Notes under the pieces: generated by a model
The model's input: only the letters and a program-made list of their open reading frames with translations
The model's database searches: none
Told to the model about the DNA's origin: nothing
Program-made: the position numbers and the translations under genes
Assembly (NCBI GenBank): GCA_041661985.1
Contig: JBAZTK010000008.1
Coordinates: 12,383 to 76,382 of the forward strand
Origin: Sulfuricurvum sp.
Lineage (GTDB): Bacteria > Campylobacterota > Campylobacteria > Campylobacterales > Sulfurimonadaceae
Reading direction: 5' to 3'
Length of the DNA: 64,000 nucleotides
Shown here: positions 5,420 through 64,000 of the stretch, piece after piece
Layout of the letters: each line of letters begins with the position of its first letter
How positions within the stretch are numbered: the first letter of the stretch is position 1

Positions 5420-7294
5420 ATGGCATCTATATTTAATGCACTTCATATTGGATACAGCGGACTTAACGCTGCTCAAGTCGGTATCGATACTACGGGGCAT
5501 AATATTGCTAATGCTGAAACAGAAGGCTACTCTCGTCAGAGAGTCGTTACATCCGAAGCAACCCCTATTAGTATTACTCCAGGTGGTAGAGGTAACGGTG
5601 TACAAATTGCCGAGATTGTTCGTGTCTTTGATTCTTTTGTGAATGCACGTTTTGAAACTGCCGCTCAAAACAAAGAATATTCGGATACGCTCAAAAAAAA
5701 TCTAGAAGAGCTTTCAACCTATTTTCCTGATATTGATAATGTTGGAATTAAACAAGACCTGCAAAATTATTTTAATTCATGGCAGTCACTTGCAGCCAAT
5801 CCAAGCAACACAGCTATCAAAGTGGATTTGGCACAAAAAACTCAAGTATTAACGCAGCATCTTTCTCAAACACGTTCCAAAATAGGGGCACTGCAAGGTT
5901 CTTTAGACAGTCAGATTAAAGTGAGTGTTGACGAAGTAAATAGAATCGGTCAACAAATCGCAAATATGAATAAAGCAATTAATCTTGCTGAAAGTGATGG
6001 TGTCAGCAATGCAAATGATTTACGTGATCAGCGCGGCGTATTGGAAATGTCACTTAAAAAATTAGTTGGGGCGAGTGTCTTTTCAGGGAATATTCAAAGT
6101 AACATGCCTGTAGATAGTAATATCGCAATTGAAAACGGGACCTATAATGTTCAAGTTGCTGGATTTAATCTCGTTGATGGTTCTTCATTTCATCCAATTG
6201 GTATGGACAGTAAAAATAATGCCGGTAATTTTAATGATATTTATTATGAGCGCCAAGATGGAGTCCGTTTTCCTGTAGGAGATAAGCTTGCTGGTGGTAA
6301 AATTGGTGCGATGCTCGAATTGCGTGGAAGCAAATTAGGAAGCGATGGCATATTTGAGAATGGATTTTTGCAAGAAACAATGAATAATCTAGATATTTTT
6401 TCAAAAGGATTAATTGAATCAACCAATAATGTTTATGCACAGACAGCTACGAATGCGATGCAGTCAAATTCATTATCTTTTAATGATAAGCAGGCATTGT
6501 TAAGTACAAATGAAAACTTCAAATCAGGCAGTTTTGATCTGGTGGCTTACGATATAAATGGAAATGAAGTTGGGCGTAGAAGTGTTAATATCAATACCAG
6601 TACAGTTATTGATAATGCGAGTGGGACTAATCTTTTGAGCGATGGTGTTACTCCAAACAGTATCGCAGAGCAACTAAGAGCTCAAAAAGATGACAACAAT
6701 GATCAGAATGCTCTTAATGACATCGATGATATGATTAGCCCCTCATTTGTAACACCCAGCAATATTTTTTCCATTTCTATGAAAGGGCAATACGCATCGG
6801 CCGGATATACTTTTGCAATACAGGATCATGGTTCTAATTTTGCCGGTGTAACTGGCTTGAACCGTTTTTTAGATGGTAACAGTGCGAAAAATATTACACT
6901 CAATGCGTCACTGCAAAGCAATGCCTCTGATATACGTGGATTTAAATCTCCCTCGCAGGGAGATAATCAAACCGCTTTAGAGATGGTACAGTTGCAATTT
7001 TCAGCAGTAGATTTTAAAGAAGGGTACAATAAAAACAGTGTTGATACGATTTATGGCAGATTTGATAATTTGGCTACACAAGTTGGAACGCGAACCAATG
7101 CCGTAATTACGAATAATGATAGCATAACTGCACAGTTTAATGCTGTGAAACAGGAACAGGATTCTATTAGTAAAGTAAGCATTGATGAAGAAATGGCCAA
7201 TCTTATTCGTTATCAAACCTCTTATGGTGCAGCTGCAAAGGTTATCACTACAATCGATCAGATGATGACAACGCTTTTAGGACTCAAGCAGTAA
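5420..7294 (+). CDS. flgK: Flagellar hook-associated protein FlgK
   Basis: N-terminal GHNIANAETEGYSRQRV; C-terminal VSIDEEMANLIRYQTSYGAAAKVI. Confidence 0.96.
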   Translation: MASIFNALHIGYSGLNAAQVGIDTTGHNIANAETEGYSRQRVVTSEATPISITPGGRGNGVQIAEIVRVFDSFVNARFETAAQNKEYSDTLKKNLEELSTYFPDIDNVGIKQDLQNYFNSWQSLAANPSNTAIKVDLAQKTQVLTQHLSQTRSKIGALQGSLDSQIKVSVDEVNRIGQQIANMNKAINLAESDGVSNANDLRDQRGVLEMSLKKLVGASVFSGNIQSNMPVDSNIAIENGTYNVQVAGFNLVDGSSFHPIGMDSKNNAGNFNDIYYERQDGVRFPVGDKLAGGKIGAMLELRGSKLGSDGIFENGFLQETMNNLDIFSKGLIESTNNVYAQTATNAMQSNSLSFNDKQALLSTNENFKSGSFDLVAYDINGNEVGRRSVNINTSTVIDNASGTNLLSDGVTPNSIAEQLRAQKDDNNDQNALNDIDDMISPSFVTPSNIFSISMKGQYASAGYTFAIQDHGSNFAGVTGLNRFLDGNSAKNITLNASLQSNASDIRGFKSPSQGDNQTALEMVQLQFSAVDFKEGYNKNSVDTIYGRFDNLATQVGTRTNAVITNNDSITAQFNAVKQEQDSISKVSIDEEMANLIRYQTSYGAAAKVITTIDQMMTTLLGLKQ

Positions 7295-8088
7295 TGTTCT
7301 ACGCTAGTGTCGTCCTGCTCGTGGGCGTCCTGCTCCTCTCATTTTTCGGGAATACTTTTTACTTAATAGACCCTTCCCATCTGGATAAAAACAGTATTTT
7401 ATTGCATCCTTCTCTTGAACATTATTTCGGTACAGATAGGTTAGGACGCGATCTTTTTGCTCGCCTGATTGAAGGTGGACAGGTATCACTGATTATTGGT
7501 TTTGCAAGTGCTTTGCTATCTACCTTTGTGGGCCTTTTATACGGCGTAAGCGCAGCGTTGATAAGAGGCGGTTTTGATAAGCTTTTTATTGTGATCGTAG
7601 ACTTATTTTTGACATTTCCAACACTCTTTTTATTACTTACACTCGTAAGTTATGTGAATGCGTCTGTATGGGTGTTGATACTGATCATCTCGATAACAGG
7701 ATGGATGGGGACGGCACGTCTTATCCGATCTGAGAGTTTTGCTATTGCCTCGAAGCCATTTATCCGGATTTTGCATATTGGTAAAGTGCATCCGATTAAA
7801 ATAATTTTCAAGTATTATGCGCCATTGCTTGCGCCGATAGTGCTGGTTAGTTTTACAATTGGGGTAGGGGGGGCAATTTTGGCCGAATCGGGGCTCTCAT
7901 TTTTAGGGCTTGGGATCGTCGCGCCTCAAATGAGCTGGGGAAGTATTTTAAGTAATGGAAAAGAAGTCATTGATATTGCATGGTGGGTAAGCTTTTTTCC
8001 TGGTCTTATGATCTTTATTGTCACTTTTTCACTGATGAATATTTCCAATACATTGCAGGCACGGCTGAATCAAAAAGAGATTCGTTAG
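7294..8088 (+). CDS. ABC transporter permease (OppC/DppC type)
   Basis: HYFGTDRLGRDLFARL, EAA-like loop ARLIRSE, AILAESGLSFLGLG...SWGSILS. Confidence 0.88.
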   Translation: MFYASVVLLVGVLLLSFFGNTFYLIDPSHLDKNSILLHPSLEHYFGTDRLGRDLFARLIEGGQVSLIIGFASALLSTFVGLLYGVSAALIRGGFDKLFIVIVDLFLTFPTLFLLLTLVSYVNASVWVLILIISITGWMGTARLIRSESFAIASKPFIRILHIGKVHPIKIIFKYYAPLLAPIVLVSFTIGVGGAILAESGLSFLGLGIVAPQMSWGSILSNGKEVIDIAWWVSFFPGLMIFIVTFSLMNISNTLQARLNQKEIR

Positions 8089-9266
8089 CGCAGTATATGC
8101 CCGACAAATTTTGACATATTGTTTAAAATTTTTCCTCCACGTCGAAAACCTAGCCCACACGCTTCATAGGCAAAAAAGACACCTGCTTGATAGCTGTTTC
8201 CCTGAGCATCTTTTGGTAATTCGACGTATTCTTGATAGATGGCTTTGAAATTGCCATAAGGACCATCATTGGCTTCAATTGTCTTTCCTGATGCATCCAT
8301 AATACGGACGTTGGCTCCTTCGCGACCGAACACTCTTTTCTCGACACATTCAATTCCTTGTAATGGTTCAAAAGAAGTTTTGAGCAGGTATTGGGAATCT
8401 GGAAAAAGGTCACATAAGATTTTGAGCATTCCTTTGGATTGAAACAACAAGGTATAGGCAGGATTCAATATAATCGCTTTTTGATTATTGACAATGGTAC
8501 TGAGTAAAACAGCGAGTTCAGGTTCATCAATCGCAATGTCTTCCCATGGAAAGAGCTTGAACCAATATTCATAAGGGGTATCGTCACTGTCGTATATCCC
8601 TTCATCATCGAATTTTACACCACCCATAGATTCAAAGCCTGTTTCAAAACCGGTGTCTATTGCCATTTGCTGAAGCAATCTTACGGTTTGTTCTTCTTCG
8701 ACGTTATCGTTGATAGAACTAAAAAGTATTTTCCACCCATCATAGTGTTCATCGAATATTTCGGTATCGTCAAAGAGGGTAACCAGCCTGCGAAAATTCT
8801 CGCTGATCGCTTCGTACACATTGTTAAATTGGCGCTCTTCATCCATTTCGTTGTGCTTGAGAATGGCCCATTGTAAAATAGCGGTTTCGAATAGCGAAGT
8901 TGGGGTATCTGCATTGAATTCGATCAGTTTGATCGGTTTACCGTCAATCCCGCCTGCGAGGTCAAAACGACCATACAGATGCCAGTGAACATCATTGTCC
9001 CAGCTTTTTTTGATCAATTCGATCAGGTTGAAAGGAATGCCAAGCTCAAAAAAGAGGTTATTATCGATGACGTGTTGTGCTGCAGTGGCGTACATGTCAT
9101 AGAGCTCGTTAACTGCCTCATAATACGCCTCTGCTTCTTGGTCACTAACGATGACGAGTTCATCAGCAACGTATTTGCTTTGATCACTGTCGGTATGCCA
9201 GTGGAATCCAATGGTTTCCAGTACGGTATCATTAATGGGTTGTATTTTTTGCAGGTTTACCATCAT
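8085..9266 (-). CDS. Glutathionylspermidine synthase-family ATP-grasp protein
   Basis: YGRFDLAGG, KLIEFNADTPTSLFE, KRVFGREGANV. Confidence 0.9.
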   Translation of the reverse strand: MMVNLQKIQPINDTVLETIGFHWHTDSDQSKYVADELVIVSDQEAEAYYEAVNELYDMYATAAQHVIDNNLFFELGIPFNLIELIKKSWDNDVHWHLYGRFDLAGGIDGKPIKLIEFNADTPTSLFETAILQWAILKHNEMDEERQFNNVYEAISENFRRLVTLFDDTEIFDEHYDGWKILFSSINDNVEEEQTVRLLQQMAIDTGFETGFESMGGVKFDDEGIYDSDDTPYEYWFKLFPWEDIAIDEPELAVLLSTIVNNQKAIILNPAYTLLFQSKGMLKILCDLFPDSQYLLKTSFEPLQGIECVEKRVFGREGANVRIMDASGKTIEANDGPYGNFKAIYQEYVELPKDAQGNSYQAGVFFAYEACGLGFRRGGKILNNMSKFVGHILR

Positions 9267-9847
9267 CAGCCTCCGAAGCTACTAGATGAACTACTACTTC
9301 TAGAGCTTGAGCTTCCAAAAAAACTTTTTTTAGGACTTCCGCCAGAGGCTTTGCTACCGCTTTGATTGGCTGAGCGATGATAGGCTGATTTATTGGAAGC
9401 ATCTTGATTTTTGCGGAAGTTGGAGTTATTCATGAGGGCATTACCAATCATATTACCTAGTAATGCACCCCCGGCTGCTGCGAGGATCGTTCCGCCTAGA
9501 CCCATCCCCTCGCTTTTTGGCTCTGAGTTGAGTTCGGACTTACCTTCCTGCATTTTTTTGTACTCTTGGTCGGCCATCGCTTTGAGTTCAGCTTCGCTCA
9601 TAACACGTTCGTGTACGGTACCATTTTCATCGGTTTCATGGATAATTGCGCGGCTTGGTCCTGTTGTTGGCATCTCTTCGATAACCACATATTTTCCATT
9701 TGGCTGTTGCTCTACGACCAAAAATTTATTAGGGGCCTCTTCATTTTTTGTCTCATCTTGAGAACTTTGGCATCCGCTTAAAGCACTTAAGACGGCTAAT
9801 CCTACTGTCCCCATTATGACATTACGCGCACTTATACTGTGTTTCAT
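9266..9847 (-). CDS. UPF0323-family lipoprotein
   Basis: ATG at 9847 with AGGAG RBS; lipobox LSGC; Gly/Ser-rich tail; coupled to the Gsp-synthase gene as in Campylobacter. Confidence 0.8.
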   Translation of the reverse strand: MKHSISARNVIMGTVGLAVLSALSGCQSSQDETKNEEAPNKFLVVEQQPNGKYVVIEEMPTTGPSRAIIHETDENGTVHERVMSEAELKAMADQEYKKMQEGKSELNSEPKSEGMGLGGTILAAAGGALLGNMIGNALMNNSNFRKNQDASNKSAYHRSANQSGSKASGGSPKKSFFGSSSSRSSSSSSSFGG

Positions 9848-9857
9848 GGTAATTCTC

Positions 9858-10286
9858 CTATCGTAGTTGTTTAAATTGTGTGGAAGTGAGTTTAAAAATC
9901 TTTGAAGGAGCGCGTTCTTGAAAACCCTGCGCATCTTCTATGATAAGATCGCTGTGCGCTTCACAAAAACGGCGATCAAAGTATTTCCCGCTCTCGTTGG
10001 CTGAAGTCGAATAGAGCCACCCATATTTTGCAATCAATGATGCATGAGGCTCTTCGCTTACATAACGGAAAGCCTGATTTTTGAGGACAAAGGTTGTCTT
10101 TCGTGTATGACGAAACCATGCCCGATATTTGAGAGGAATGCGGGTATGCTCTTGTAAAATTTTGAGAGAGGCAAACACTTTCAAGTAGGGTTTCCCCTCC
10201 TTGCGCCCTTTGACAATATTTAATCGCGATTCATCTTGGGAAAGAAATCCGACAGTGGTGTCGGTCTGAGCGAGAATGAGATGCAT
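9858..10286 (-). CDS. Sua5/YrdC-family protein (short form)
   Basis: ILAQTDTTVGFLS and LYSTSANESG motifs of the YrdC fold. Confidence 0.75.
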   Translation of the reverse strand: MHLILAQTDTTVGFLSQDESRLNIVKGRKEGKPYLKVFASLKILQEHTRIPLKYRAWFRHTRKTTFVLKNQAFRYVSEEPHASLIAKYGWLYSTSANESGKYFDRRFCEAHSDLIIEDAQGFQERAPSKIFKLTSTQFKQLR

Positions 10287-10290
10287 TAGC

Positions 10291-13200
10291 TTATTGGATT
10301 AGGTAATCTTGCAATGCCTGTGGCTTCATCCAGCCATCATCATGCATCTGAGCCATAGCTTCAATGGCAGCACGAGCAGCGCTGAGGGTAGTGAAATACG
10401 GTATTCCCATACGCAATACGATTTGTCGAATTTGCTCTGCATCCTTTTTTGCTGTTTGATTATCGGATGTATTAATGGCAAGAGAAATATCGCCATTTTT
10501 CATGATGTCTTCAATGTTAGGACGACCCTCAGAGATTTTGAGAACTTTTTGACAGGCAATTCCGGCATCCGCAATAATTTTTTGAGTTCCACCGGTTGCT
10601 ACGAGTGTAAAGCCTTGTGTCGTCAACCCACGTGCAATTTCAACGGCATGTTTTTTATCGGCATCGATAAAGGAGAGGAAACACGTACCTGATGTCGGAA
10701 TTTTATTGCCCGCAGCCAGTTGACTTTTGGCAAAACTGACCCCAAAGTTCTGGCTGATTCCCATGACCTCACCGGTTGATTTCATCTCAGGCGAGAGGAC
10801 GAGATCGGCACCGTAAAGTTTGTTGAACGGGAATACGGCTTCTTTAATCGCAACGTGCCCTTTGAGGCGAGGTTTGAGTAAACCATCCTCTTCCATGACG
10901 ACATCGTAGTTATCGTAATATTTGAGGGCATTGCGCAGGGTATCTCCCAGCATAACACGTGTGGCAATTTTAGCCAATGGCATACCAGTCGCTTTTGAGA
11001 CAAATGGCACGGTACGCGACGCTCTTGGATTCACTTCAATAATGTAAACTTCATTTTGATAAATTGCATATTGAATATTGAGAAGTCCAATGACCCCAAG
11101 TCCCAGTGCGATCACTTTGGTTTGTTGCTCTACTTCATACTTTAGCTCATCGCTCAATCCTACCGGAGGAAGAGAACATGCGCTGTCGCCAGAGTGTATT
11201 CCTGCTTCTTCGATGTGCTGCATAACAGATCCGATATAGACTTCAGTTCCATCAGAAATTGCATCAACATCAAGTTCAACGGCTTGATCAAGGAATTTAT
11301 CAACGAGTACCGGAGAATCGTTGCTTACCGATACGGCGACGTCCATATATGTACGCAAGTCATCTTCATTGTACACGATACGCATTGCGCGTCCGCCCAA
11401 AACGTAGGATGGGCGAACGAGTACAGGATAACCCAGTTTTTCGGCAACGACAAATGCTTGCTCTTTGGTCATGGCAATGCCGTTCTCTGGTTGCTTAAGC
11501 CCTTTTTCAACGACAAAAGCAGAGAACTTTTCACGATTTTCAGCCAAATCAATCACAGCAGCAGACGTTCCGGCGATAACGGCACCCATCTCTTCCAAAG
11601 AATTCGCCAATTTCAAGGGTGTTTGACCGCCGAAGTGGACGATAATACCGTTTGGTTGTTCTGCTTCAACAACGGCACGGACGTGTTCAAAATCAATTGG
11701 TTCGAAATAGAGGACGTCGGAGGTGTCATAGTCGGTAGAAACGGTTTCGGGATTACAGTTGTACATGATTGTCTCGATCCCCATCTCTTTGAGAGCAAAT
11801 GCGGCATGGACACAACAGTAATCAAATTCGATTCCCTGACCGATACGGTTTGGTCCGCCGCCTAAGATAAGAACTTTTTTCTTATCGCTTTTACGTGGCT
11901 CTTGAACCCCGAGTCGAGAGATATTGGTAGTTGAATACAGATACGGAGTCAGTGCCCCAAACTCTGCGGCACACGTATCGACTTCGTTGTATTCAAAGGC
12001 AATTTGGAGTGATTTTCTAGCATTATAGACATCATTTTCTTTTGCATTGCCACCATTTTGAGTGATAAGACGTGCAATATTTTTATCTGAAAACCCTTCG
12101 GTTTTAAGGCGTCGTAATTGGTTCTCATCTTTGAGCGTTGCAGAAGTAATTACGGATTCTTGAGTCACAAGTTCTTCGATTTGTGTCAGGAACCATGGAT
12201 CGATTTTGGAGAGTTCAAAGATATCACTATGGCTCAGACCCATGCGGAACCCTTGCGCAACATAGAGGATACGCTCAGCGTTTGGACGACGGATTTCGTG
12301 CTTAACAAATTCTAAATCACCGTCTATCGGGTCAAATCCGCTCAGACCTGTTTCGAGGGAGCAAAGTGCTTTTTGGACAGACTCTTTGAAAGTACGGCCG
12401 ATGGCCATGGCTTCTCCTACCGATTTCATACTGGTAGTAAGCGTTGACTCCGCTTCAGGGAATTTTTCAAATGTGAAACGGGGAACTTTGGTGACGATGT
12501 AGTCAATAACCGGTTCAAAACTCGCAGGCGTTCCGGTAATGTCGTTGGTAAGTTCATCGAGGGTAAATCCAACTGCAAGCATGGTAGCGATTTTGGCAAT
12601 TGGATAACCGGTCGCTTTGGATGCCAGTGCGGATGAACGGGAAACACGCGGATTCATCTCGATAACGATCATACGTCCCGTTTTTGGATCAACCGAGAAT
12701 TGCACGTTCGATCCGCCGGTGTCTACTCCTACTTCACGCAAAATGGCAAATGAGGCGTCACGCATACGCTGATATTCTTTGTCGGTGAGGGTGAGGGCAG
12801 GGGCTACGGTGATGGAATCACCTGTATGAACGCCCATAGGGTCAAAGTTTTCAATGGAACAAACAATGATACAGTTATCGTTACGGTCACGTATAACTTC
12901 CATTTCGTATTCTTTCCATCCAAGGAGGGATTCTTCGATCAAAATCTCAGTAACGGGGCTTTCGTCTAAGCCTCTTTGTGCGAGTAATTTGAACTCATCA
13001 ATGTTATAAGCAACACCGCTTCCTCCACCTGCAAGGGTGTAAGATGCTCGGATTATGAGTGGAAAACCTATCGTATTGGCAGCATTAAGAGCTTCGTCCA
13101 TATTGTACGCATATTGGGAAATTGGAAGATCCATTCCAATTTTGATCATGCACTCTTTGAAGGCTTGTCGGTCTTCCCCTTTTTTAATGGCAGAAGGACT

Positions 13201-58601: not shown

Positions 58602-59816
58602 TCATATTTTATCTTTATCGATCTCTATTCCGCCGCATTCAAGCGTATTGACCAGATCTGTTGTGTAAAGTTTATCGAAATTGGCGATCATAATTTTTCT
58701 AAGGTACTCTTTTTCCGCTTGTTCTGCCCGCATTAAGCTTCCTGCAAAGATCCCTTTTTTCTCCAAGACCAAAGAGGTGATGTCGCTGTCCATCTTAATG
58801 TGGTTCATCAGCTCTTTGATATTGGTTTCAAAGATGGAGCCAAGGAGAGAAAACATTCCCGCTAAATAGGCTTTATCTTTATTTTTTTGTGATGCTTCAG
58901 CTTCCATACTTTCGGCTCTTTTGATCGCAAGGTCGAGCAGTGTTTTAGATGCAAGATTTCTTGAAAGTTCCGAATACAAATAGACCATAAGCCATCGGAG
59001 CAGTTTTTGTCTCCCCATTAGGTTGATTACTTGTGTCAAAGATTCGACTTTGGTGTTGAGCTTTTCTGAGTTATTGAAAAACTGGATCAGTTTAAAAGAT
59101 AAATCGGCCTGTTGTTTCAAAAAGAGTTCAAGTTGCTCGTTGGCGGTATTGTCCTCTTTGATGATTTTTATGAGTTGAAGAATGACAAATTGGGCAGCTT
59201 CTTTTGGGCCGACGATTTCGATCACTTGGGGTCGGTCAAGATAGTATCCTTGAAACAAATGAAACCCTAGTTCTTGATACTTTTTATAATCTTCTTTAGT
59301 CTCAATATTTTGAGCTAACAGTTGGATACGCGAGCCTTCAAATTTTTTCATCACTTTTTCAAGATTTTCAGGTTGAGATAGGACAACATCCATTTTGATA
59401 ATATCGATAAAATTGAACAGCCGTACAAATTTATTAATCATATCGGCACTGGAGTCAAAACGCTCTAATGAGAGCATAAACCCTCTTTTTTTGTACTGGA
59501 TAATCTTATTGATGATGTTATCATCGAGCTTGATGTCTTCGTGGATATTGAGAACAAATCGATCTTTATCGAGAACATCCAAAATCCCTTTAGTAAGGGT
59601 AAATTCATCAATATTGACAAATCCAAGACTGCGTTTTCCAAGCAGTTTGTCGAGTTCGGGACTGGTTATCGAGCTCATGATAAGCTGGGATGTACCTTTG
59701 ACGCTGTCTGATAGACCGGTATCCCTGTCAGAGCTGTCTTTAAAAAGGAGCTCATAGGCAAAAATTTCGTTTTTCCTATTGAAAATTTTTTGTATTGAGA
59801 GGCGTACAATATTCAT
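58602..59816 (-). CDS. EAL-like plus HDOD domain protein
   Basis: QKIFN...YELLF degenerate EAL; FQGYY; HDOD-type helical C-terminus with AYLAGMFSLL. Confidence 0.85.
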   Translation of the reverse strand: MNIVRLSIQKIFNRKNEIFAYELLFKDSSDRDTGLSDSVKGTSQLIMSSITSPELDKLLGKRSLGFVNIDEFTLTKGILDVLDKDRFVLNIHEDIKLDDNIINKIIQYKKRGFMLSLERFDSSADMINKFVRLFNFIDIIKMDVVLSQPENLEKVMKKFEGSRIQLLAQNIETKEDYKKYQELGFHLFQGYYLDRPQVIEIVGPKEAAQFVILQLIKIIKEDNTANEQLELFLKQQADLSFKLIQFFNNSEKLNTKVESLTQVINLMGRQKLLRWLMVYLYSELSRNLASKTLLDLAIKRAESMEAEASQKNKDKAYLAGMFSLLGSIFETNIKELMNHIKMDSDITSLVLEKKGIFAGSLMRAEQAEKEYLRKIMIANFDKLYTTDLVNTLECGGIEIDKDKI

Positions 59817-60384: not shown

Positions 60385-61104
60385 TTAAATACCGAAAATC
60401 TTTTTAGCACGTTCCAAATCTTTTACCGTATCGATTCCAAATCCGCTACTTGCTACTTTTACCATCGAAATCTTTTTACCGTGATACAACGCACGAAGCT
60501 GTTCGAGTTTTTCGATGTCTTCGAGTGGTGCTTCACCAAGGGCACAGAAATCGTGGAGAGATTTTTTCGTAAATCCGTAAATACCAATATGACCGAAATA
60601 GTTCGCCTCCCCGCTGCGATTAAAGGGGATAGGACTGCGAGAGAAATAGATGGCATTGTGCGCATCATCAGTGATGACTTTGACCATATTGGGATCATTG
60701 GCAGATTCGGTGTTGATAGCGTTGTAACAGCTTGCCATGATGAAGGGTACGTTTTGGGCTTTGAGGCTGTTAAGCCGCTCGATTAAGAGGGTCAATACTT
60801 CGGTTTCGATGAATGGTTCATCGGCTTGAACATTGATGATGAGTTCATCGTCAGGAATGTCGAGCAACTGCGCACACTCATTGATACGGTCTGTTCCGCT
60901 TTTATGGGTTGTAGAGGTGAGTCGTGCTTCGATCCCGTGCGTGGCACATATTTTGAGTATAGCTTCATCATCACACGCGACAACAACACGGTCAATGGAT
61001 TCGACTCTCTTGGCAGTACGGATCACCATCGGCAAACCGCCGATATCCGCGAGGACTTTTTGAGGAAAACGGGTAGAGGCTAAGCGGGCAGGGATGATAA
61101 TCAT
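60385..61104 (-). CDS. kdsB: 3-deoxy-manno-octulosonate cytidylyltransferase
   Basis: IIIPARLASTRFPQK, SGTDRI, NVQADEP, YFSRSPIP, EKLEQLRAL. Confidence 0.95.
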   Translation of the reverse strand: MIIIPARLASTRFPQKVLADIGGLPMVIRTAKRVESIDRVVVACDDEAILKICATHGIEARLTSTTHKSGTDRINECAQLLDIPDDELIINVQADEPFIETEVLTLLIERLNSLKAQNVPFIMASCYNAINTESANDPNMVKVITDDAHNAIYFSRSPIPFNRSGEANYFGHIGIYGFTKKSLHDFCALGEAPLEDIEKLEQLRALYHGKKISMVKVASSGFGIDTVKDLERAKKIFGI

Positions 61105-61236
61105 AGTAAAACCTAATATAGTGATATAATTAAACAATTATATCCCAAAGGCTAGAAGATTGGGTGGTTTAGGGTTGGTAGAGGAGGTTCATGGATGAAG
61201 TTTTTAAGTTTTAGAGTCATTGAAGATTTTTTTGAT

Positions 61237-61292
61237 TATAATTTTGCCAACATACTTCCCCCACCTCTTGTAAAAGTGCAAATGGGGGAGTG
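61237..61292 (+). promoter_or_regulatory. Promoter and structured leader of the Abi-family gene
   Basis: TATAAT at 61237-61242; CTTCCCCCA (61255-61263) can pair with TGGGGGAG (61283-61290), which contains the likely SD. Confidence 0.55.
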
Positions 61293-62168
61293 CTTTTGAC
61301 TTCGTATAACAAACCCCATTTAACCTATCAACAACAGTTAGAACTCCTTAAAAGCCGTGGACTTATTGTCAAAGATGAAAATTTTGCAATCATAAAATTA
61401 CAGCATATAAGTTACTATCGCCTTAGCGCATACTTTTTACCTTTTCAATCAACAAAAGATAGGTTTGATGAGGGTGTGACGTTTGAAACAATAATAGAAC
61501 TTTACCATTTTGATAAAGAACTTAGAATTTTGACCTTTAGCGCAATAGAAAAAATAGAGATATTCTTGAGAACTTCCGTAGCCTACAACTTTTCTAAAAA
61601 TCATACGATCTTTGGTTATACCGATAGTAAAAATTTTTGTTGTGATGAGAAAGATTTTGAGTGGTTAATGAGCGACATCACAAAAGAGACAAGTCGTTCC
61701 AAAGAGACTTTTGTTAAACATTTTAGAGACAGTTATACAGATGATGATTTACCTATATGGATGGTGGTAGAAATCATCTCGTTTGGAACACTCTCTAAAC
61801 TTTATACAATGCTTTGTACTCAAACAGAAAAAGAGATACTAAACGGGATAAATCTGCCATCATTTGTCTTTAAAAACTGGCTTCACGTATTGTCGTATGT
61901 ACGAAATCTATCCGCTCATCACAGCAGACTTTGGAATAGACAGTTTGTCATAAAAGCAAAAATCCCGAAACACAAAAAAGAGTTTAACGGAATCGTTAAC
62001 GATAAGTATCACACGTTTGCGATCATGGTTCATCATATTTTAAAAGCCATTAATGATACGTTCGAGTTCAAGACAGAACTAAAAAATCTGCTCGACAAAT
62101 ATCCGCAAGTGGATAGAAAAGCTATGGGATTTGTCGATGGTTGGGAAGAGTTGGAGGTGTGGAAATGA
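61290..62168 (+). CDS. Abi family protein (AbiD/AbiF, Abi_2; HEPN)
   Basis: KPHLTYQQQLELLKSRGL, ISYYRLSAY, EKIEIFLR, LPIWMVVEIISFGTLSKLY; Rx4H motif RNLSAH. Start GTG 61290 or TTG 61296. Confidence 0.88.
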   Translation: MLLTSYNKPHLTYQQQLELLKSRGLIVKDENFAIIKLQHISYYRLSAYFLPFQSTKDRFDEGVTFETIIELYHFDKELRILTFSAIEKIEIFLRTSVAYNFSKNHTIFGYTDSKNFCCDEKDFEWLMSDITKETSRSKETFVKHFRDSYTDDDLPIWMVVEIISFGTLSKLYTMLCTQTEKEILNGINLPSFVFKNWLHVLSYVRNLSAHHSRLWNRQFVIKAKIPKHKKEFNGIVNDKYHTFAIMVHHILKAINDTFEFKTELKNLLDKYPQVDRKAMGFVDGWEELEVWK

Positions 62169-62257
62169 ATATAAACTATTTTGTATCCACATATCAGCTC
62201 TATTTACCGACAGAAGAAGAGTTTAGAGCGGAGATAGTTACAAAAAGAAATTTATAA
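62165..62257 (+). pseudogene. Remnant C-terminus of a DUF1016/YhcG-type gene
   Basis: 30-codon ORF MNINYFVSTYQLYLPTEEEFRAEI resembles the YQLYLPTEEEL tail of YhcG-family PD-(D/E)XK proteins. Confidence 0.55.
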
Positions 62258-62287
62258 GTGAATATATAAAAAAAAGGGCTTAATAAA

Positions 62288-63442
62288 ATGTTTTCAAAGA
62301 ATAATTTTAATCATAATAATTTTAATCAAGTTTTGGTAGATGCTGTAGGTAATCGCTTGCAAAATGAGAATTATGAAGATGCAGTAAAACAGGCACTTTT
62401 GTTTATTACAGATGTATTTAGAGAGAAAAGTGGTTTAACGGAAGATGGTGTTAGCCTTGTTTCAAAAGCATTAAGCTTAAATAGTCCTCTAATCAAAATA
62501 AACGAACTTCTAAATGATACTGATCAAAATGAACAAAAAGGAGTTATGTTTTTAGCACAGGGTATATACTCTGCTTTCAGAAATCCTCTTAATCATACAA
62601 TTCACACAAAGATCTCAGAAAAAGATTGTATGCGTCAATTGACAATCATTGATATGATTTACGATTACATAACTCGTGACATTCAAACGGAAAATAAAAT
62701 TTCTAAAGCATTATTTGATTTGGTAGATGATAATAATAAAGATTTTTATTTTTTTAGAAATGATTATGATGAAAAAATTAATAAAGTTCTAAATGTAGAT
62801 AATCTTTGGTTATATGGCGAATCAGGACTTGGAAAAACAAATTCAGCTATATATTACACCTTAGTGAAAAAGTATCCATTCTCATTTACAGTTTATTGTT
62901 CTGATTTACCAGATTATAAAATTGGAACGATTATTCAAAATATTTTTGAAAGTTTACATGCAAAAATATTAGGTGAAAAATCAGATTTATTAAATGATAT
63001 AGATATTAACAAAAGTAATGATAAAAAAGAATTACAAAAATTGCTAAATCTTATTGTAGAACATTTTACAAGTGTTATTTTAATTTTTGATGATATTCCA
63101 GAGTTGGATGATGACGAATTTAAAGATTTTTATCTATTTTTATTGTTTTTGTTTAAGAACTCATCAAATAGCAGCAAGCTAATCATCACAAGTATTGTTG
63201 ATCCTACAAGTAAATTAGAATTATTAAGTGAGAGAGACAAAGATAAACTATGCGATGAAACATTAAAGTTTATAGAATTTCAGAATTGGGATGATAGCGA
63301 AATTATTGGACTAAAAAAACATATTGAAGCTTCTATTGGGAATAATATAATATCTGATGAGGATGCTAAAAATCATTCACAAGGGAAGCCAAGAAAGTTA
63401 AAACGATTAATGAAAGATCAAGTTACAGGAGATAATGTATGA
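62288..63442 (+). CDS. Ymh/TIGR02391 (HEPN-like) domain fused to a P-loop NTPase
   Basis: YEDAV...REKSGLTEDGVSLVSKAL...EQKGVMFLAQGIYSAFRNPLNH; Walker A GESGLGKT; Walker B LIFDD. Confidence 0.72.
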   Translation: MFSKNNFNHNNFNQVLVDAVGNRLQNENYEDAVKQALLFITDVFREKSGLTEDGVSLVSKALSLNSPLIKINELLNDTDQNEQKGVMFLAQGIYSAFRNPLNHTIHTKISEKDCMRQLTIIDMIYDYITRDIQTENKISKALFDLVDDNNKDFYFFRNDYDEKINKVLNVDNLWLYGESGLGKTNSAIYYTLVKKYPFSFTVYCSDLPDYKIGTIIQNIFESLHAKILGEKSDLLNDIDINKSNDKKELQKLLNLIVEHFTSVILIFDDIPELDDDEFKDFYLFLLFLFKNSSNSSKLIITSIVDPTSKLELLSERDKDKLCDETLKFIEFQNWDDSEIIGLKKHIEASIGNNIISDEDAKNHSQGKPRKLKRLMKDQVTGDNV

Positions 63443-64000
63443 AAATTTTAAAATCTACGACCATAATACCTCAAAATTTATATGTTGAAAGAAAAGCTGA
63501 TATTCAATTAAGAAATGTGATTAATGATATGGGTCGCCCTGCATCAATACTTGTTTCTAGACAAATGGGGAAAACAAATCTCCTTTTAAATGCAAAAAGT
63601 ACATTGGCAAATGAAAATAAATTATTTATATATATCGATCTTTCAAGTACATTTTTCCCAAGCGTCAAAGAGTGTTTTAGATATATAATTGATTCAGCTA
63701 TAGATACCAATCCTATTTTTGAAGAAATTGAAGAAAAAATAACAGAAAATAGAGAAAAAAACAAGCTTCCAAATCGAGAACATGAACAAGAGTTGTTATT
63801 ACTGTTGCGGCAAGTTAACGGCGATATAGTTATCGTATTAGATGAAATTGATTCGATGATAAAATATGATTTTTCAGATCAATTTTTCTCACAAATCAGA
63901 AGTGTGTATTTCGCAAGTAGGACAAATTATCCTGAGTTTAATAGATTGACTTATGTGTTGTCTGGTGTGCTTGAGCCATCAGAAATTATTCATGATAAAA
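63439..64000 (+). CDS. AAA_35-like STAND NTPase (3'-truncated; absent from the ORF track)
   Basis: Translated by hand: MKILKSTTIIPQNLYVERKAD...LVSRQMGKT...IVLDEID...FFSQIRSVY...EFNRLTYVLSGV...; open to the window end; ATGA overlap with the previous gene. Confidence 0.78.
   Translation, partial: MKILKSTTIIPQNLYVERKADIQLRNVINDMGRPASILVSRQMGKTNLLLNAKSTLANENKLFIYIDLSSTFFPSVKECFRYIIDSAIDTNPIFEEIEEKITENREKNKLPNREHEQELLLLLRQVNGDIVIVLDEIDSMIKYDFSDQFFSQIRSVYFASRTNYPEFNRLTYVLSGVLEPSEIIHDK

Follow-up and report, generated by a model that had tools for sequence, protein, structure and literature searches.

What do two adjoining NTPase genes do on strongly AT-rich DNA at the right end of a 64,000-nucleotide (nt) stretch of contig JBAZTK010000008.1 from Sulfuricurvum sp.? 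This whole stretch is called the window below, and coordinates refer to it unless another contig is named. The window holds all of gene A (62288..63442, + strand), and only the start of gene B (63439..64000, + strand; the first 187 of 847 amino acids (aa)), the rest of which lies beyond the window and was found on another contig, L001 (L001:2422-4965). A previous reading made without database searches (the sequence-only reading) had taken the pair for a sensor NTPase coupled to a HEPN effector, and the analysis described here supports that view, with the defense role and the RNase activity as predictions. The window pair represents the rare form, with a HEPN domain, of a large family of operons whose effectors are interchangeable, and we assign a probability of about 0.6 to the reading that it is a two-gene anti-phage (abortive-infection) system of the STAND/NLR type, comparable to a split Avs protein and carried on horizontally acquired DNA.

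In bacterial immunity, no pattern-recognition proteins are better understood than STAND/NLR receptors. If our reading is true, a widespread system with sensor and effector split onto two related NTPases would demonstrate a way to swap effectors while the receptor stays as it is, and bacteria would offer a simple model of the sensor and helper roles known from plant NLR pairs. Defense annotation would also gain a family that occurs in Bacteroidota, Proteobacteria, Campylobacterota and other phyla.

Domains and NTPase modules of the two genes

Gene A encodes a 384-aa protein, recognized by its open reading frame (ORF), its domain matches and 29 homologues, in which a Ymh-type HEPN domain precedes a small AAA+/STAND-like NTPase. 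The HEPN domain (aa 11-124; 62318..62659, + strand) matched the Pfam family Hypoth_Ymh (PF09509) with an E value of 1.7e-28 and 99.3 bits (cut-off 25), and the NCBIfam family TIGR02391 with 75.3 bits (cut-off 39.45, E 4e-21), so that the Ymh/TIGR02391 domain with an RNPLNH motif that had been predicted from the letters alone was recovered above the curated cut-offs. This predicted catalytic Rx4H motif lies at aa 98-103 (62579..62596, + strand) and is conserved in homologues, with R98, N99, P100 and H103 invariant among 18 of them, down to 25% identity. Ymh is listed among the HEPN families, as had been stated before, with a conserved Rx4-6H motif (Anantharaman et al., 2013, PMC3710099), and is reported there to occur solo or fused to paraMORC, AbiJ-NTD1 and AbiTii, in restriction-modification (R-M) neighborhoods; a fusion to a small NTPase of the gene A type is not among the fusions catalogued in that study. 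In the AlphaFold2 (AF2) model of gene A, which has a predicted local distance difference test score (pLDDT) of 87, aa 14-129 are all-helical, and residues 102-104 in the histidine loop have a pLDDT below 50.

The small NTPase module occupies the rest of the protein (aa 150-384; 62735..63439, + strand), and in the AF2 model it consists of an alpha/beta nucleotide-binding domain (NBD) and, as the last element of the protein, a helical lid; it has neither a winged helix nor a sensor. Pfam searches gave weak matches at aa ~171-302 to AAA_22, NPHP3_N, ATPase_2, NACHT and AAA_16, all under their curated cut-offs. When the gene A model was compared with the Protein Data Bank (PDB) using Foldseek, the matches were CED-4, Cdc6/Orc1, TnsC and the archaeal ATPase_2 proteins 2qen and 2fna, and the sole PDB relative of the small NTPase by sequence was Cdc6 (2qby, E 0.001). 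Both Walker motifs of the fused NTPase postulated earlier could be located. Walker A, GESGLGKT (aa 177-184; 62816..62839, + strand), is conserved in homologues, G182 being invariant in 18 of them and G177, G180, K183 and T184 nearly so, and its GxxGxGK positions are conserved in the wider small-NTPase family too. Walker B, VILIFDD (aa 263-269; 63074..63094, + strand), falls in an hhhhD[DE] column that is conserved family-wide. The lid carries a conserved C-terminal GKPRxLK motif (GKPRKLK, aa 366-372; 63383..63403, + strand), which is probably the GxP/sensor-2 arginine, and the columns matching P368, R369 and K372 are at least 90% conserved over 76 and 145 family members. Ymh-type relatives of gene A are rare: in a collection of 5.8 billion proteins, they made up 29 clusters at 90% identity. 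At the gene A N-terminus, a perfect 14-nt tandem repeat, AATAATTTTAATCA, is present in 2 copies with a start-to-start distance of 15 nt (62300-62328), and encodes the duplication NNFNHNNFNQ.

The ATG of gene B at 63439 overlaps the TGA of gene A, forming the ATGA junction that had been noticed previously (63439..63442, + strand; GTATGAAAA), and this overlap suggests that the two genes are translationally coupled. Gene B was absent from the ORF lists, as also noted at that time, because its reading frame runs off the window end. It was completed from L001, a 5,054-base pair (bp) contig from a groundwater metagenome that matches the window at 100% across the shared 2,983 nt and stops 89 nt past the gene B stop codon, giving a gene of 2,544 nt from its start, and a protein of 847 aa. 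The 187 aa encoded within the window matched AAA_35 with 39.8 bits (cut-off 27, E 3e-10), and the full protein matched the same family (PF14516) over aa 13-328 with 71.9 bits (E 5e-20), covering profile positions 11-319 of 331. The earlier assignment of gene B to the AAA_35 type on the motifs YVER, RQMGKT and LDEID was therefore correct, these being found in LYVER (aa 14-18), in Walker A VSRQMGKT (aa 39-46; 63553..63576, + strand), which is a deviant P-loop typical of AAA_35, and in Walker B VIVLDEID (aa 131-138; 63829..63852, + strand). Among 17 gene B homologues, R41-Q-M-G-K-T46, L134-D-E-x-D138 and G234-x-P236-R237 are invariant, and the last of these, a GxP-type motif that reads G234-H-P236-R237 in gene B, is the equivalent of GKPRKLK in gene A.

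Past the NTPase, the Pfam matches were to TPRs at ~aa 355-455 and, at the very end of the protein (aa 829-847, E 9e-9), to a SEC-C zinc motif. The AF2 model of gene B (pLDDT 88) contains an NBD (1-200), a helical domain (HD; 205-253), a helical region with a beta hairpin (258-345, hairpin 320-330) that is consistent with a winged helix domain (WHD), and a continuous alpha-solenoid (354-814). As modeled, gene B has the STAND layout of NBD, helical domain, winged helix and repeats, and GKT of Walker A (44-46), DE of Walker B (135-136) and the GxP motif are all present. The top Foldseek match in the PDB was Avs3 bound to phage terminase (8dgc, E 7e-8), followed by Orc1 and SAMD9, which agrees with the previous proposal that gene B is a STAND NTPase. 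By sequence, a search of the PDB with gene B gave no NTPase match, only TPR and SecA zinc-tail matches. The SecA-type SEC-C zinc motif, CPCNSGKKYKKCCGK, ends gene B past the window (L001:4906-4965), and since it was found in just 5 of the 78 gene B proteins from the surveyed loci, it is a clade-specific addition. Relatives of gene B are plentiful (>822 matches of ~860 aa each in a protein search), and they are currently labeled only as "AAA-like domain-containing protein" or "SEC-C domain-containing protein". Both reading frames are real, and chance can be excluded, because at the local composition, where a stop is expected every ~11 codons, the probability of 384 open codons is 5e-17 and that of 847 is 9e-37, and because each gene has many conserved homologues.

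Judged by alignment and shared motifs, the small NTPase of gene A and the NTPase of gene B are paralogues. Using hhalign, positions 2-159 of the small NTPase aligned to gene B residues 13-185 with a probability of 93% (E 2.6e-7), and the two modules have in common a YxxR..D motif before the P-loop, Walker A, Walker B, S-x-x-x-P and, in the lid, G-x-P-R. Across 67 loci, the pairwise identities among the gene A NTPases were correlated with those among the first 345 aa of gene B (Mantel r 0.84, a value reached in 0 of 999 permutations), indicating that the two NTPase modules are inherited and diverge together. The TPR part behaved differently from the NBD-HD-WHD part (aa 1-345), with identities of 73% versus 91% to a close relative, and of 45% versus 72% and 25% versus 56% to more distant ones. 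By this measure it is the fastest-evolving part of gene B, and is sensor-like.

The operon family and its interchangeable effectors

To place the window pair among its relatives, one genome per species in the Genome Taxonomy Database (GTDB) was scanned with a gene B profile, resulting in 80 loci. In 77 of these, the ORF immediately preceding the gene B relative was matched by a hidden Markov model of the small NTPase, always on the same strand and abutting or overlapping the gene B start, and in the remaining 3 the gene B relative was at a contig edge, so that all 77 testable loci were positive. The majority of the loci were from Bacteroidota. Others were from Gamma-, Beta- and Alphaproteobacteria (Pseudomonas, Aeromonas, Shewanella, Stenotrophomonas, Delftia, Bradyrhizobium, Caulobacter, Sphingomonas and others), and from Myxococcota, Acidobacteriota, Planctomycetota, Chlorobiaceae and a few metagenome-assembled genomes of Bacillota. 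In every Ymh-type locus examined, gene B came immediately after gene A, with an overlap or a gap of no more than a few nt, and L002-L005, L086 and L087 have the arrangement seen in the GTDB loci. In the protein searches, 11 gene A/gene B match pairs carried identical longest-contig figures. The pairing assumed in the sequence-only reading held up in this comparison, since both genes occurred together without exception in the loci examined, and no third gene common to these loci was conserved. At one locus (L072:7001-11626), a tblastn match to gene B begins at 7001, yet gene A occupies 7524-9065 and gene B 9062-11626, which may point to an additional gene B-like fragment ahead of gene A.

The extent of the family was seen with the small-NTPase profile. 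A word-indexed protein search with this profile returned Ymh-type proteins only, and missed a protein from Aliarcobacter lanthieri; exhaustive HMMER was therefore used, and found 382 representative clusters, 239 of them at E <=1e-10. The small-NTPase module was C-terminal in 150 of the 150 best HMMER matches, behind 10-420 variable residues. When the N-termini of 76 genomic gene A proteins were assigned to Pfam families, PNP_UDP_1 was the assignment in 20, DUF676/alpha-beta hydrolase in 16, DUF7379 in 14, Mrr_cat in 13 (with Mrr_cat_2, 4 more), Trypsin_2 in 4, Hypoth_Ymh in 3, and GT4-conflict and Metallophos in 1 each. A second set of 97 representative gene A proteins contained 36 with PNP and 23 with DUF676, as well as single proteins with a kinase, caspase or SMEK domain. 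PADLOC reads these N-termini as effector parts (LmuA, Avs2, CBASS PN-superfamily effectors and PDC-M60C), and in the gene A proteins whose PADLOC coordinates were inspected, the significant matches were within the N-terminal effector part.

The A. lanthieri locus illustrates the interchange. Its gene B is 53% identical to that of the window (69% across the NBD-HD-WHD region), and its gene A product, of 497 aa, has a lipase-like DUF676/PGAP1 domain joined to a homologous small NTPase (29% identity, E 3e-18). The NTPases of three DUF676-type proteins (L005A, P0155 and P0156) are 41-55% identical to one Ymh subgroup, and this subgroup is only 26-31% identical to the window gene A protein. Among 67 complete loci, the gene A N-termini formed nine unrelated clusters, and the effector differed from that of the nearest gene B neighbor in 7 of the 67, indicating that swaps are occasional.

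Proposed mechanism, alternatives and named systems

The mechanism that we infer comprises sensing of a phage protein, formation of a hetero-oligomer, RNase activity with its targets, and an abortive outcome. Gene B would be the sensor, and its fast-evolving TPR solenoid (~460 aa) would bind a phage-derived protein, as Avs proteins do; binding of the trigger would then switch the gene B NTPase to an assembly-competent state. Gene A would be the executor, its C-terminal mini-NTPase co-assembling with activated gene B by means of NTPase-NTPase contacts, and the co-assembly would bring the N-terminal HEPN domains of gene A together. Because HEPN RNases build their active site across a dimer, which is generally established and is also described in PMC3710099, RNA would be cleaved once these domains meet, and the infected cell would cease growth. 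We suggest only tentatively, and with more doubt than the reading as a whole, that a truncated mini-STAND protein and a full receptor build a mixed, NTP-dependent oligomer, which would be a counterpart of sensor/helper NLRs with an effector exchangeable independently of the receptor, undescribed, present in many bacterial phyla, and absent from present-day defense catalogues.

Several points weigh against this interpretation. The contact between A and B by way of their NTPase modules is proposed from paralogy, co-variation and gene order, and plain operon co-inheritance would yield the same Mantel signal. The gene B P-loop, V-S-R-Q-M-G-K-T, is deviant, with a non-canonical first position, and it is therefore uncertain whether gene B hydrolyzes NTP or merely binds it. 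The HEPN catalytic histidine loop is the least confident stretch of the AF2 gene A model, the SEC-C tail of those 5 gene B proteins has no explained role, and the GTDB neighbor survey was made without a matched control and without a count of distinct defense neighbors.

The main alternative is that the same parts operate with the opposite sign of regulation, as in guard or toxin-antitoxin logic. Gene A would then be an intrinsically active HEPN toxin kept inactive by gene B in a constitutive complex, until gene B is removed or remodeled, either on infection or when the element is lost, and gene A is set free. Many HEPN toxins are restrained by a partner (Anantharaman et al., 2013, PMC3710099), translational coupling at the ATGA would fix the A:B stoichiometry, and the pair is found on mobile elements and, as PrrC is, within a type I R-M operon. 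We consider such an arrangement unlikely, however, since Walker A and Walker B are intact in both proteins across all phyla, which speaks more for an NTP-driven assembly switch than for passive sequestration, since a sensor of ~850 aa whose TPR solenoid diverges rapidly is what receptors that bind a trigger typically have, and since Avs3, the closest solved structure, is activated by its ligand rather than released. More improbable still is a conflict system directed mainly at something other than phage, in which the pair would serve mobile-element addiction or inter-element competition, for instance by stabilizing integrative elements or keeping out rival plasmids. The effectors (PNP, Mrr, lipase-like, trypsin and HEPN) and the neighbors (R-M, Abi, Lamassu, Old, DRT and Avs) are typical of phage-defense islands, and most loci are chromosomal, with no mobility genes among the annotated neighbors in L002 or L087, although the L086 pair has an integrase upstream and the type IV secretion genes T4SS-DNA_transf, TraH and TraG downstream, and the L004 pair lies near integrases. 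The foreign base composition of the pair would also suit an inter-element module, as would its rarity in viral contigs, with 2 loci only in IMG/VR and no match to the pair family in GenBank phages.

Least credible, and by a wide measure, is the idea that the adjacency is incidental or regulatory, with gene B acting either as a STAND transcription regulator of the MalT/AfsR kind or as a housekeeping scaffold, and gene A processing RNA independently of it. It is well established that certain bacterial STAND proteins are transcription factors, as Lee et al. (2026, PMC13581612) also note, but no DNA-binding domain was found in gene B, either with Pfam on the full protein or in the AF2 model. The adjacency in 77 of 77 testable loci across phyla, the co-variation of the NTPases, the sporadic distribution, the foreign GC content (guanine plus cytosine) and the interchange of toxic effector domains likewise do not favor it.

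The pair was compared with named systems using the PADLOC v2.0.0 models. None of these matched the small NTPase, and none matched gene B in five further diverse members; the gene B of the window matched PDC-S12 by its SEC-C tail only. The literature searched contained no description of the pair, and no link between AAA_35/PF14516 and phage. The pair is absent from the main text of the eLife surveys by Kaur et al. (2020, 2021) and of the 2026 STAND census, and a nuclease-NTPase preprint does not describe it. The earlier statement that the arrangement matches no named system is upheld to the extent that no PADLOC v2.0.0 system and no description in the literature searched corresponds to it, but the pair proved not to be a one-off, as it belongs to a large operon family. 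It is apparently a widespread, unnamed two-gene STAND system with a separate effector-carrying mini-NTPase, and the main risk to its novelty is that a recent defense catalogue may already name it.

Of the named systems, Avs (AVAST; Avs1-5 and Avs7-21) would be the nearest to the pair in its way of working. Avs proteins share with gene B a STAND NTPase followed by a long TPR-like sensor, Avs3 being the best structural match to the gene B model, and they likewise have interchangeable N-terminal effectors (nuclease, protease, PNP, HEPN and others) and a defense-island location. The Avs proteins characterized by Lee et al. (2026, PMC13581612) carry the effector on the sensor polypeptide. In contrast, the effector of the pair is on a separate protein with its own paralogous mini-NTPase, and the gene B NTPase is of the Pfam AAA_35 family. 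Membership in Avs was rejected, as gene B has no fused effector and no PADLOC Avs model matched it in 6 diverse members; matches to Avs2 and Avs1b lay solely within the N-terminal effector portion, and only in certain gene A proteins. Lamassu resembles the pair in combining a constant ATPase partner with a protein whose N-terminal effector cassette is swapped, and among the 76 gene A proteins there were 24, 10 and 4 whose N-terminus was matched by LmuA models in PADLOC. These matches cover effector domains only, there is no LmuB/SMC, and the partner is always an AAA_35-TPR protein, so that assignment to Lamassu was also rejected; the constant parts of the pair, unlike those of Lamassu, are two AAA+/STAND modules and a TPR sensor.

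PrrC and RloC are similar in that an NTPase is fused to a HEPN-type RNase domain, which in the pair is a predicted one, and in that the L087 copy lies inside a type I R-M system, as prrC does. Fusions of Ymh to paraMORC ATPases have been proposed as PrrC analogues (PMC3710099). Unlike PrrC/RloC, gene A has the HEPN domain at its N-terminus, which reverses the order, its NTPase is AAA+/STAND-like and not ABC, an obligatory second gene encodes the sensor, and the embedding in R-M genes is not general. PD-Lambda-3 and the HEPN proteins of short-pAgo systems share a Ymh-type HEPN domain with gene A (PADLOC E 4e-17 and 4e-15). Coverage of gene A was limited to aa 22-128 for PD-Lambda-3_B and aa 7-128 for Aga_HEPN. 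Membership in PD-Lambda-3 was rejected because the Ymh stretch matches only the C-terminal part of the PD-Lambda-3_B model, and PD-Lambda-3_A matched none of the three proteins scanned (the AbiD neighbor, gene A and gene B). Membership in short pAgo/SPARTA-like systems was rejected because there is no Argonaute gene in the window, in L001-L004, in L086 or in L087.

The closest relatives of the small NTPase are Cdc6/Orc1 and archaeal ATPase_2 proteins (PF01637), with 2qby, 1w5s, 2qen and 2fna identified by fold; in contrast to these, it has no winged-helix DNA-binding domain and is fused to toxin-type effectors. Plant paired sensor/helper NLRs (e.g., the NRC network) are related NTPase immune proteins that divide labor, one acting in sensing and the other in execution, and are often encoded adjacently. 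The comparison of the gene pair with them is an analogy only, having no sequence relationship beyond the STAND/AAA+ fold; unlike plant NLR helpers, the bacterial executor is without winged helix and repeats, and hetero-assembly is here only proposed.

Genomic neighborhood and borders of the cassette

The relatives of the pair are found among defense and mobile-element genes, in keeping with the defense-island setting that had been expected. In L087, whose gene A is 76% identical to that of the window, a type I R-M system has hsdR on one side and hsdM/hsdS on the other of an inserted Abi_2 gene and the pair (L087:376-10119), and a large AAA_11/AAA_12 helicase gene follows. The L005 pair is near R-M genes. 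In L002 and L003 the pair has two Fic genes, one of the SoFic type, just upstream, and in both of these loci a RhuM-family gene (L002:13689-14690 and L003:6228-7229) shares its first 4 nt with the end of gene B, which suggests that it is co-transcribed with gene B there. When the largest neighboring ORFs of the GTDB loci were examined, strong matches were obtained to LmuA, Old, DRT, AriA, a type I methyltransferase, Avs1a, NsnB, PtuA and AbiLi.

A plasmid or phage origin of the pair was considered and rejected, as the plasmid matches were mostly to cyanobacterial AAA_35 proteins, none of which spanned 80% of gene B, and there were no phage matches. The cyanobacterial proteins are annotated with WD40, TPR and CHASE2 and match the NTPase part only, ~27% of the gene B query; they look like a separate AAA_35 branch.

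The pair was lower in GC than its flanks in all loci checked. In the window, GC content falls from ~0.44-0.46 over housekeeping genes to 0.33 over the Abi gene, and is 0.24-0.30 from ~62250 to the window end. The abrupt shift to AT-rich DNA described earlier is also evident by feature: the window as a whole has a GC content of 42.4%, AbiD one of 34.5%, gene A one of 26.7% and full gene B one of 25.8%. On these grounds the pair appears to sit on foreign, horizontally acquired DNA, in an AT-rich cassette (62237..64000, no strand assigned, GC 26-27% versus 42.4%) that continues past the window end.

The gene preceding the cassette (61290..62168, + strand) encodes an Abi_2 protein of the HEPN type (Pfam E 4e-59; 200.5 bits, above the curated cut-off of 25.6). 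It had been called AbiF. An Abi_2 family gene is indeed present, but it is assigned to the AbiD/AbiF family and not to AbiF specifically, because PADLOC identifies the product as AbiD (E 4e-81). An Abi_2 gene adjoins the pair in L087 and is missing beside it in L002, L004 and L086, and this neighbor is an abortive-infection system of its own, made up of a single gene, and not a partner that the pair requires. A gene for a KdsB-like cytidylyltransferase (60385-61137, - strand, E 1e-54) lies immediately to the left of the Abi gene, and one for an EAL/HDOD-like protein (58602-59816, - strand) lies further left, on the housekeeping side of the island border. Both have normal GC, and because these two genes occupy the left side, the island start can be placed between 61138 and 61290.

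The border between AbiD and the pair was located by comparison with a related but different organism, from sequencing run X2. A 2,534-bp contig from this run, spanning the cytidylyltransferase end and AbiD, aligns to window positions 61085-62236 with 72 differences, and from 62237 continues as unrelated sequence. The divergence at 62236/62237 is the exact point of the GC drop, and the pair is therefore a cassette separable from AbiD; the relative has AbiD at the same site, where the gene pair does not follow in the same form. Neither att-like direct repeats nor a tRNA gene were found at the cassette borders, and a promoter/terminator scan was at chance level (31 promoter-like sites versus 33.6 expected). 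A 30-aa ORF, MNINYFVSTYQLYLPTEEEFRAEIVTKRNL, is located between AbiD and gene A (62165-62257, + strand); its ATG overlaps the AbiD stop codon via an ATGA, and it has no Pfam match. The gap between the Abi_2 gene and gene A in L087 is 62 nt, which is too short for this ORF, and it is therefore probably non-functional.

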